A stretch of 64,000 bases of DNA from Atractiella rhizophila (GCA_021432655.1 MU271301.1:1-64000), one strand, 5' to 3'. Positions 57,110 through 60,029 are shown, counted from the stretch's first letter. A program made the numbers and translations. Notes: generated by a model not told the origin, from the sequence alone.

Positions 57110-58022
57110 ACCATTCCTGCATTCTTCCCTTCCGTTGACTTTTCATTTAGCGATACTTAACATTAGCGTTTGTCTCGGATTCGAGATGAGATTTGCACCG
57201 CATGTGTCATCTCTTATTCGAAATCAGAGAAATCAGCGGATGTGCTTCATTACTTTAAAACATCATGAAAGCCATGACGCCCGTGGTGAAACTGCAGCAC
57301 AGAGATGAGAGGATCGTTCACTCTTGTGCAAGCCAGCATATTCTTCCCTTTTCTGTGGCCTTCACTTCTAACCTCTGCATTTGAAGAGAAGGAGACGTCA
57401 AGGTTGCTACAACCATGATGAGGATTCTCTCATTGTACCCACTAGACGTGTTGCTTGTCCGCATTTGAAAGGTGACATTCCAATGATTGTTCTTTTGCTT
57501 CTGGGACACATTTATTGAGCGAACTACCTCGGTTTGCGGTGTGTATCTGTTTCGCTCCATCACTCCCTTTCTCCCCTTGATGACGACATGCAGAAGAGGT
57601 ATTTCAGAAAGTGTAGTCTCTTTTGGGGCTCAGGCGCAACTCTTTTCAGCCTGTTGACTCTTGTGCTCAGCAAGTAGGCAATGATAGGTCATTCCGATGC
57701 GGCTGATGGAGGTTCGCCTGATGTCTACCTTTCTTCGAGAGCCAATCTTCTTTTAAATATAGGGAGCTCTGGGAATTCTATGTGTGGGCTCTCTTTTCCG
57801 TATGGATATCGATGGCGAAGGAGGAATTCTTCAACATAGAAGCTCCACTTACCATTTTGCGGCAGGATATGGCTGTCCCATTAGCCCCACCCATCTGAAA
57901 CGCAGCAGGGGTTAGAAAATGCTTCGCTGTGGAGTGATCATTCACTGATGTGCAAACCGATCAAATGGCAGTCTGATCTGACGATGTCATCAATCCATGA
58001 AAGTTATCCACGTAGCATACAC

Positions 58023-60029
58023 TCATTGTCTCCTCTTCCCGCTGTCACTAATGATTACTCTCCCTCCTTTTCCATTATCCTCCAAAATGTCAGTCTCAGG
58101 GCTTCTGTTACCACTCTCTAAGCTGTCCAATTCAGTAGAACGACCGTGTTCATCTCTGAGATAGAACCACCATGCTGTTCACCGCGATCAACCATCAATC
58201 ATGGATGAAGAGATTCCTTACCTGGGAGAGCGACGCTAGCGTGGATGTTTTGTAAAAGATTTGAAGGTCATCGAGATGAAACTTACAAAAGAGCACCAAC
58301 AACGTTTCCAATAAACGCGGGAATCAATGATTTCCAAATATATTTGCCTGTGGTCAAGTCGCCACCTGTGCGCACAACATTATAAAGCATTTGATTCAGA
58401 ATGCAAAAAGGTTACCTTCCATAATAGAGAGTGGGATAGAGAACATATTCTGGTGACGATCACGGAGTCAGTAATTGAACGAAAGATAATAATGGGCGAG
58501 GATTTACCGCTAGATTCGGTGAAGACATATAGTTAATATTAGTGAAGTATGCTGATATAGAGTGGCTCACCTCTGTGATGTTCACGATTGTTAATGCTAG
58601 CCGGTTCGAACTCCGAAGTAAAGCAAAGCACTCACATGACGTGATCATATCCTGCCGCCACGAAAAGCCATATTGGCAACCACAGAGCAACAATCTTCGA
58701 AACTGTTTCATTCGAACCTGCCGCAACCCAAACAGCGAGACAGACGAGCTGTTTAATGGACGTGCGTGAATAAATGCAACAAGGATTCAGTTCATCAAGG
58801 TGGACCAACCCAGTTACAACCTGCGAAACCTGAGCTTATTGCGGCCGTTTTTGGAAAGATACGCACCAATTCCTCGCAAGAAGATTTGATGCCACTCAGG
58901 TGTATTGACTTTGGTATTCACGAAGTGTATGACGTATGTGTGGTAGGGCTCGCTGTCAGCAGGAGCCAAATCAGGCTTGGTACGTCGCTAGCGACAGAAA
59001 AATAGGCGGATGGATACCTGCTGAGGACGCCAGAATCTGCGCGGGTGTCAACGAATTGTGATGCTGGGAAATGAAGTACCTACATTTGACTAAAATTGCG
59101 GCTATTGGAAAACATTATTCGAACGGTTGCAGTCTCGGGCGATGAACACAACTTGCCTGTCTAGATGCCCTTTGAGGATTCTATCATCAGTTGTAGGGGG
59201 AACAACTTACAAACAAAGATCCAGCTGTGGACACAGTTAAGTTTGAGAGAGGTTGTAACTAATAGGGAATAGAAGCATCGACTCACCCAAATTGCCAAAA
59301 AATACAACCAGCCAATTCAAGCCTAGTGACCAGAATGGCACTCGACGCCTCAGGACTGCCATAGGAAAAGTGAACATATTTGAGGTTAGGAGTTCCTAGA
59401 TCCAAAAATAGTTGGAAATGGAGCCATCCGTGAACCAGGTGACGCACTTGGCCAGTTAACACGATTAACTGTGGTTCAGGTACTTCAACATGAACTTGGC
59501 GCCCACACAGTAAGACGACGAACCGTCAACCCGATAGGGAAAGTGAATCCAGCGATCAATTTCGTGAGTCCAGGGTTATTTGTCGTAAGCGTTGGGGATC
59601 CGCCAGAGACTATTATTGATAAAAGATTCCCATAGCTTAGGAACACGCCTATTCCAAAGAGTGCAGAATTTGCTTCTGTCAGGTGAACCTTTCGAGGGAG
59701 AGAAAACACGCCTGCCAAAAACTACGAAGATAATCAGCACTTCGCTGGATGAGAGAAGGGGAGGTGACGGACCGCTTTCAGAAATATCACCTGATCCGCT
59801 CTATTAACAATGTATCTTGATACGCAAATGAACGAGCTCACATCTTGGCGCGTTTTGTGCTTCGCCTAAGGCATTACCCTAAGACAATAATTTTTTGTCG
59901 ATAAATCTTCTCACCAAAGCAGCTTCAACGAAAAAGTATGCAACTGAAGAGAAATAAGTCGAGTTCAATCCAAGAGCGAACCTTACCCTGATTGGGCTGG
60001 AGCGTGGCTGGTGTGAGCGCAGAAGCCAT
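58023..60029 (-). CDS. Formate/nitrite transporter (FNT family), 21 exons
   Basis: Manual splice: IFLKAFLAGVFLSYG...PGLTKLIAGFTFPIGLTLIVLTGQELLTSNM...NWLVVFFGNLAGSLF...WHQIFLRGIGCNWLVCLAVW...SKIVALWLPIWLFVAAGYDHVIANMFSIPL...LIPAFIGNVVGA. These are FNT signature motifs. Confidence 0.92.

Follow-up and report, generated by a model that had tools for sequence, protein, structure and literature searches.

Basidiomycetes and ascomycetes are both known to have exons of one to three nucleotides. In Coprinopsis cinerea, the long-read annotation holds 89 gene models in which an exon measures no more than 3 nt, with 57 two-nucleotide exons (in 50 genes), 13 of one nucleotide and 27 of three, and omission of most of these 1–3-nt exons leads to a premature stop (PMC12230235). 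We describe here a gene of Atractiella rhizophila, contained in a 64,000-nt stretch of DNA (GCA_021432655.1, MU271301.1:1-64000; hereafter the window, with positions counted from its first letter), in which two exons of 2 nt very probably follow one another directly. As in Coprinopsis, these are constitutive, internal exons within the 1–3-nt class, in an intron-rich basidiomycete with short introns (PMC12230235). They differ from the Coprinopsis catalogue, as it is described, in being consecutive, in lying within a channel protein's most conserved motif, and in belonging to a different subphylum; neighbouring 2-nt exons may nevertheless already be on record in the full Coprinopsis exon table.

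In the account given of the Fusarium P450 gene CYP621A, an ultra-short exon likewise lies in a conserved motif, keeps the frame and lies between an AG and a GT; it was noticed through an "intron" of about twice the usual length and confirmed with public RNA reads (PMC12940212). That exon is a single nucleotide in an ascomycete gene that is mis-annotated in most records, whereas the Atractiella gene has two exons of 2 nt and a correct deposited protein; the same report cites exons of 2–5 bp for Arabidopsis, Drosophila and humans (PMC12940212). Adjacent micro-exons, of 5 bp and 12 bp and again within a conserved coding stretch, are described for a plant Peptidase M1 gene in the Zygnema paper, according to which they arose by stepwise intron gain and were verified by RNA-seq; unlike the Atractiella exons they are larger, belong to a plant lineage and are accompanied by exons and introns of other sizes (PMC11096116). 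Among the titles and abstracts of papers on consecutive, tandem, adjacent or successive micro-exons, we found animal and plant cases and none with two adjacent 2-nt exons.

In recursive splicing, an acceptor AG abuts a regenerated donor GT at a zero-length ratchet site, and the mRNA retains no nucleotide from it. In a stwintron (spliceosomal twin intron), an internal intron breaks up the donor, branch element or acceptor of an external one. The Atractiella layout resembles recursive splicing and stwintrons, as these are described, in that an acceptor is followed directly by a donor and successive reactions act on the same few nucleotides. Neither category was found to apply: each of two sites contributes 2 nt to the mRNA, which sets the layout apart from a zero-length ratchet, and the donors and acceptors of all three introns are uninterrupted, so that a non-nested path explains the mRNA and no stwintron is called for. 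An earlier suggestion, made in a first-pass annotation of the window, was that splicing here is ordered or recursive-like; ordered removal stands as a reasonable expectation, and strict recursive splicing was dropped because of the 2 nt kept per site. What is unusual is the tandem arrangement of two 2-nt exons together with the presence of 20 introns in 927 coding bases, and we see in it an extreme example and not a new principle. Its interest lies in providing RNA-backed, neighbouring 2-nt exons within the functional core of a channel protein.

The host gene and its product

The product of the gene is a predicted channel of the formate/nitrite transporter family, whose members are pentameric channels for formate, nitrite or related anions. 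Translation of one exon, 62 residues long, led to the deposited protein annotated as "putative formate/nitrite transporter" of Atractiella rhizophila (308 aa; here P0001). P0001 matches the Pfam profile PF01226 with 264.1 bits (cut-off 34.6; E 1.3e-78), residues 19–261 falling on positions 6–240 of the 240-position profile. When aligned to solved channels, YDHVIANMF of P0001 falls opposite LEHSVANMF (9v2a) and FEHCIANMF (3kly), and the histidine of the P0001 motif is therefore the central histidine of the family. The conserved E-L-(F/L)-T stretch, which we take to be the second constriction loop, is also present, GQELLTSN of P0001 lying opposite GAELFTGN (9v2a) and GGELFTSS (3kly). A spacing of exactly three residues from the histidine to the asparagine, and an invariant alanine, were found in 121 of 121 homologous proteins. 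The best protein relatives of P0001 are P0003 (67% identical) and P0002; the nearest named ones are all from Agaricomycetes, at 64% identity or less, and Atractiella itself is presumably a member of the subphylum Pucciniomycotina.

Introns interrupt this gene about once every 46 nt of coding sequence, and all 20 are between 43 and 65 nt long. Seven of the 21 exons measure 14 nt or less; besides the two of 2 nt there are one of 4 nt and four of 10–14 nt. Elsewhere in the window, stop-free frames of 1197, 990 and 742 codons are found, so that other genes have long exons and the intron density belongs to this gene and not to its neighbourhood. An introner-like origin was considered separately and rejected: a blastn-short comparison of all 20 introns against the window returned chance-size matches of 11–22 nt only, with no repeated intron family within the window.

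Splice layout at the histidine motif

Read on the minus strand, the window sequence has three introns of 63, 61 and 58 nt between ...GTCAT and AATATG..., the first two separated by AG and the last two by CG (Table 1; the three introns are referred to as A, B and C in this order). The coordinates and splice letters that the first-pass annotation had assigned to the interval 58450–58635 agree with the sequence exactly. Both 2-nt exons are flanked by canonical sites, CAG/AG/GTGAGC and TAG/CG/GTAAAT, and the joined exons restore Ile215-Ala216 and the reading frame to give D-H-V-I-A-N-M-F. Omission of one or both exons, that is, the loss of 2 or 4 nt, shifts the frame by simple arithmetic, as had been pointed out before. 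Branch-like motifs were located in all three introns (TTAAC at -22 in A, CTAAT and TTAAC at -33 and -27 in B, CTGAC at -22 in C), and in each of them the acceptor used is the first AG 3′ of the motif, as read by eye from the sequence. The proposal that every one of these 58–63-nt introns has a donor, a branch point and an acceptor of its own is thus borne out at the level of recognisable signals.

Table 1. Positions of the transporter gene and of selected exons and introns in the window.
Feature	Position	Strand	Remarks
Formate/nitrite transporter coding region	58023..60029	-	21 exons, 20 introns, 308 codons plus stop; unique path to P0001
3′ untranslated region	57966..58022	-	up to the poly(A) site, from the X1 contig
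Intron 5, GC-AG	59649-59711	-	63 nt, donor GCGTGT; follows a 10-nt exon; in frame if retained; removed in RNA contigs
Exon 10, ACAG	59157..59160	-	4 nt; followed by a GC-AG intron; use of the upstream acceptor seen in X12 record 4
Intron 10, GC-AG	59102-59156	-	donor GCAAGT; follows the 4-nt exon; removed in RNA contigs
Exon 15	58636..58748	-	113 nt; ends ...GAT CAC GTC AT; holds the channel histidine; contig pieces 58636-58749 in 4 of 4 runs
Intron 15 (A)	58573..58635	-	63 nt, GTGAGT...CACAG; interrupts the Ile215 codon in phase 2; absent from RNA contigs
Exon 16, AG	58571..58572	-	base 3 of the Ile215 codon and base 1 of the Ala216 codon; required by the unique canonical path; letters present in mRNA contigs
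Intron 16 (B)	58510..58570	-	61 nt, GTGAGC...TCTAG; interrupts the Ala216 codon in phase 1; loci L054 and L013 have an intron in this codon position and phase
Exon 17, CG	58508..58509	-	bases 2 and 3 of the Ala216 codon; letters present in mRNA contigs
Intron 17 (C)	58450..58507	-	58 nt, GTAAAT...ACCAG; phase 0, at the Ala216/Asn217 boundary
Exon 18	58416..58449	-	34 nt; begins AAT ATG TTC (N-M-F); RNA contig pieces 58414-58450

An exhaustive path search was carried out on the minus strand between 57900 and 60100, allowing exons of 1 nt or more and GT/GC-AG introns of 30–300 nt, and demanding a translation identical to P0001. Exactly one path reproduces P0001 letter for letter; it starts at 60029 and includes both 2-nt exons. 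Within the 186-nt gap alone, exactly one canonical path spells the four letters, whether the minimum intron is set at 20, 30, 38 or 45 nt. When the gap was shuffled by mononucleotide, with the donor hexamer and its last 3 nt held fixed, a canonical path of any kind was possible in 14 of 20000 shuffles; a chance look-alike of CAG/AG/GTGAGC in the middle of the gap is therefore unlikely. The three introns fall within the 43–65 nt range of the gene. With our own homology-guided spliced aligner and P0002 (55% identical) as the guide, both 2-nt exons were recovered. In controls, P0001 as the guide returned 20 of 20 introns and P0002 returned 16 true introns, only the 4-nt exon being missed. The expectation that gene predictors would miss the layout did not hold, since the deposited P0001 reads GYDHVIANMF and a guide of 55% identity recovers both exons.

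RNA contigs and competing readings

RNA data came from four runs (X1, X2, X12 and X23), aligned out of 24 listed with part of the stretch and all available as Logan contigs. X1 is a root metatranscriptome recorded as RNA, and the kind of X2, X12 and X23 is guessed or unknown; together they represent at most four samples from four studies, under at least three organism labels. Being assembled, such contigs are silent on levels, rare isoforms and splicing order. Contigs from all four runs carry exactly four added letters between 58636 and 58449. X1 and X23 have a joint from 58450 to 58636 with GCT (plus strand) in between, and since the alignment absorbed another base at 58450, where it matches the final intron base, the letters number four and not three. 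The same joint is present in X12, where record 2 leaves 40 letters between its pieces, by arithmetic 37 of exon 18 plus 3; in X2 both contigs break at the junction and their loose ends carry the same letters. The mRNA thus reads ...GTCAT-AG-CG-AATATG... in contigs of four of four runs, as had been predicted for this junction.

Spliced RNA contigs span exons 1 or 2 to 21. The X1 contig lies between 57966 and 59944 and covers 942 letters, by arithmetic the combined length of exons 2–21 plus one chance-matched base, and at 57966 it ends in 26 loose T (plus strand), corresponding to the poly(A) tail of a minus-strand mRNA. From its length and its tail we conclude that the entire 21-exon model is carried by mature mRNA. 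Intermediates or lariats of introns A, B and C (for example, ...CACAGAG joined directly to CGGTAAAT...) were absent from the contigs of the four runs, as were the skipped joints 58636 to 58509, 58571 to 58449, and 58636 to 58449 without inserted letters, in a data type that drops rare variants.

Two further X12 contigs retain introns. Record 3 (58515–58664) is colinear with the window through intron A, the 2-nt exon AG and the larger part of intron B, and represents unspliced RNA, or DNA. It comes under another organism label and has four differences from the window; the two that are listed lie at 58564 (intron B) and 58602 (intron A), and no listed difference falls on the AG exon or its adjoining splice sites. 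In record 4 (59100–59316, minus strand), a 50-nt intron (59161–59210) is spliced out and the introns on both sides are retained, from which it follows that the acceptor before the 4-nt exon ACAG is used on its own. Around the ACAG exon, this contig captures introns being removed out of sequential order.

The shift of frame on skipping invites the reading that the 2-nt exons serve as a regulatory switch, in which condition-dependent skipping would bring in a premature stop, mRNA decay and loss of the channel. Every skip takes out 2 or 4 nt and so always shifts the frame, and a micro-exon switch has been reported for Xlr2 in Trichoderma, a filamentous fungus (PMC11121469). We regard a switch as very improbable here, because the contigs of four of four runs, which drop rare variants, contain the fully included form alone, and because the five other exons of 4–14 nt in the same gene point to general intron crowding rather than to a dedicated device.

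The mature RNA contigs fit a single 4-nt exon, AGCG (58511–58508), just as well as AG plus CG. These four letters are contiguous in the genome, intron B ending in AG, and are followed by the donor GTAAAT; AGCG would then lie behind one 124-nt intron (58635–58512) with a GT donor and a CT 3′ end, and the AG/AG/GTGAGC at 58575–58565 would be fortuitous. Such an intron is about twice as long as the longest of the others in this gene (43–65 nt), and we know of no recognised intron class with a CT acceptor. A strong, donor-like GTGAGC, preceded by YAG and the right two letters, would have to have arisen by chance at a 63 + 61 nt split, against the scarcity of any canonical path in the shuffles, and a real intron occupies the position of intron B in two related loci, L054 and L013 (see below). 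A 4-nt exon is accordingly a highly doubtful alternative. An error here in the genome assembly or in the RNA contigs, or an origin of the four letters other than splicing, is negligibly probable: we found nothing in favour of it beyond the fact that the RNA evidence consists entirely of assembled contigs, and against it stand an identical junction in four runs (at least three organism labels, one root metatranscriptome), the letter-for-letter match of P0001 to the window via a unique path, and X12 record 3, which is unspliced and colinear with the window over the stretch given above.

The motif [FY]-D-H-[VI]-[VI]-A-N-M is therefore very probably split by three short, separate GT-AG introns of the U2 type (63, 61 and 58 nt), with the exons AG and CG between them. 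We favour two exons of 2 nt over one of 4 nt because they belong to the only all-canonical path, because such a path is rare in shuffles, because the intron sizes are usual ones, because a CT acceptor belongs to no class known to us, and because relatives have an intron at position B. The original proposal, that two consecutive 2-nt exons complete H-x-x-A-N-M, is upheld on the strength of the RNA contigs of four runs, the unique canonical path and the relatives' intron.

With two 2-nt exons, intron definition would pick out each intron separately, from the donor and the branch-like motif it carries and from the AG that comes first 3′ of this motif. As each acceptor and the next donor are 2 nt apart, neighbouring introns would presumably not be bound by spliceosomes simultaneously and would be removed successively, in any order that leaves a continuous RNA. 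Exon skipping would need introns of 121–186 nt, beyond the 43–65 nt range, which would favour inclusion of the tiny exons. The layout is probably a side effect of how extremely crowded with introns this gene is, and not a regulatory device. It would mean that intron-definition splicing in fungi tolerates an acceptor-donor spacing of 2 nt twice in succession, and it should serve for testing spliced aligners and gene predictors and for studies of splicing order and minimal exon size; knowledge of the channel itself is unchanged.

Intron positions in related loci

A metagenome scan yielded 59 loci, 48 of which hold both [FYW][DE]H and NM[FLIVMY] within 450 nt. The two motifs are colinear in 7 of the 48 (cDNA-like or intronless) and are separated by one gap of 67–82 nt in 36, by 60–61 nt in two (L008 and L010) and by 118–127 nt in three (L013, L014 and L054); two consecutive 2-nt exons were found in 0 of these 48 loci. 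Intron positions in the relatives were obtained by reading the DNA and by spliced alignment of 22 of the 59 loci to P0001. An intron after base 1 of the Val214 codon is present in 16 of 16 intron-rich loci (12–16 introns, 55–64% identical). L054 (4057–4190) and L013 (4174–4315) have an extra intron after base 1 of the Ala216 codon, in the position and phase of intron B, and their two introns enclose a putative 6-nt exon, TTGTTG or TCATTG. In L008 (1438–1515) and L010 (3607–3685) the intron lies one base beyond the position of intron B. Taken together, the homologues have five intron positions within 9 nt around the H-V-[VI]-A-N codons.

L054 and L013/L014, with their putative 6-nt exon at this site, resemble the window in gene family, in motif and in having a downstream intron in the Ala codon in phase 1, and differ from it in that the upstream intron is placed 4 nt closer to the 5′ end (in the Val codon, phase 1) and the third intron is absent. 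A tree joins L054 and L013 (support 96/93) and leaves the window unplaced, and the position of intron B that they have in common may be ancestral or convergent. One possible, tentative reading is that the histidine motif of fungal formate/nitrite transporter genes is a hot spot of intron sliding and pile-up, the Atractiella layout having come from an ancestral 6-nt micro-exon after the upstream intron moved by 4 nt and a third intron was gained. Were this so, the locus would represent the tightest workable intron packing, three introns with 2-nt spacers and strictly successive removal, and would offer a natural substrate for work on minimal exon length under intron definition.

Over the whole gene, the 20 intron positions of the window have two in common with the 12 positions common to the 16 intron-rich loci, one after residue 38 in phase 0 and the other after residue 138 in phase 1. 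The comparison implies what appears to be massive intron turnover between the Atractiella and metagenome lineages. In this comparison, which runs over L012–L058, two or three more introns of the gene lie 2–8 nt from positions occupied in the intron-rich relatives.
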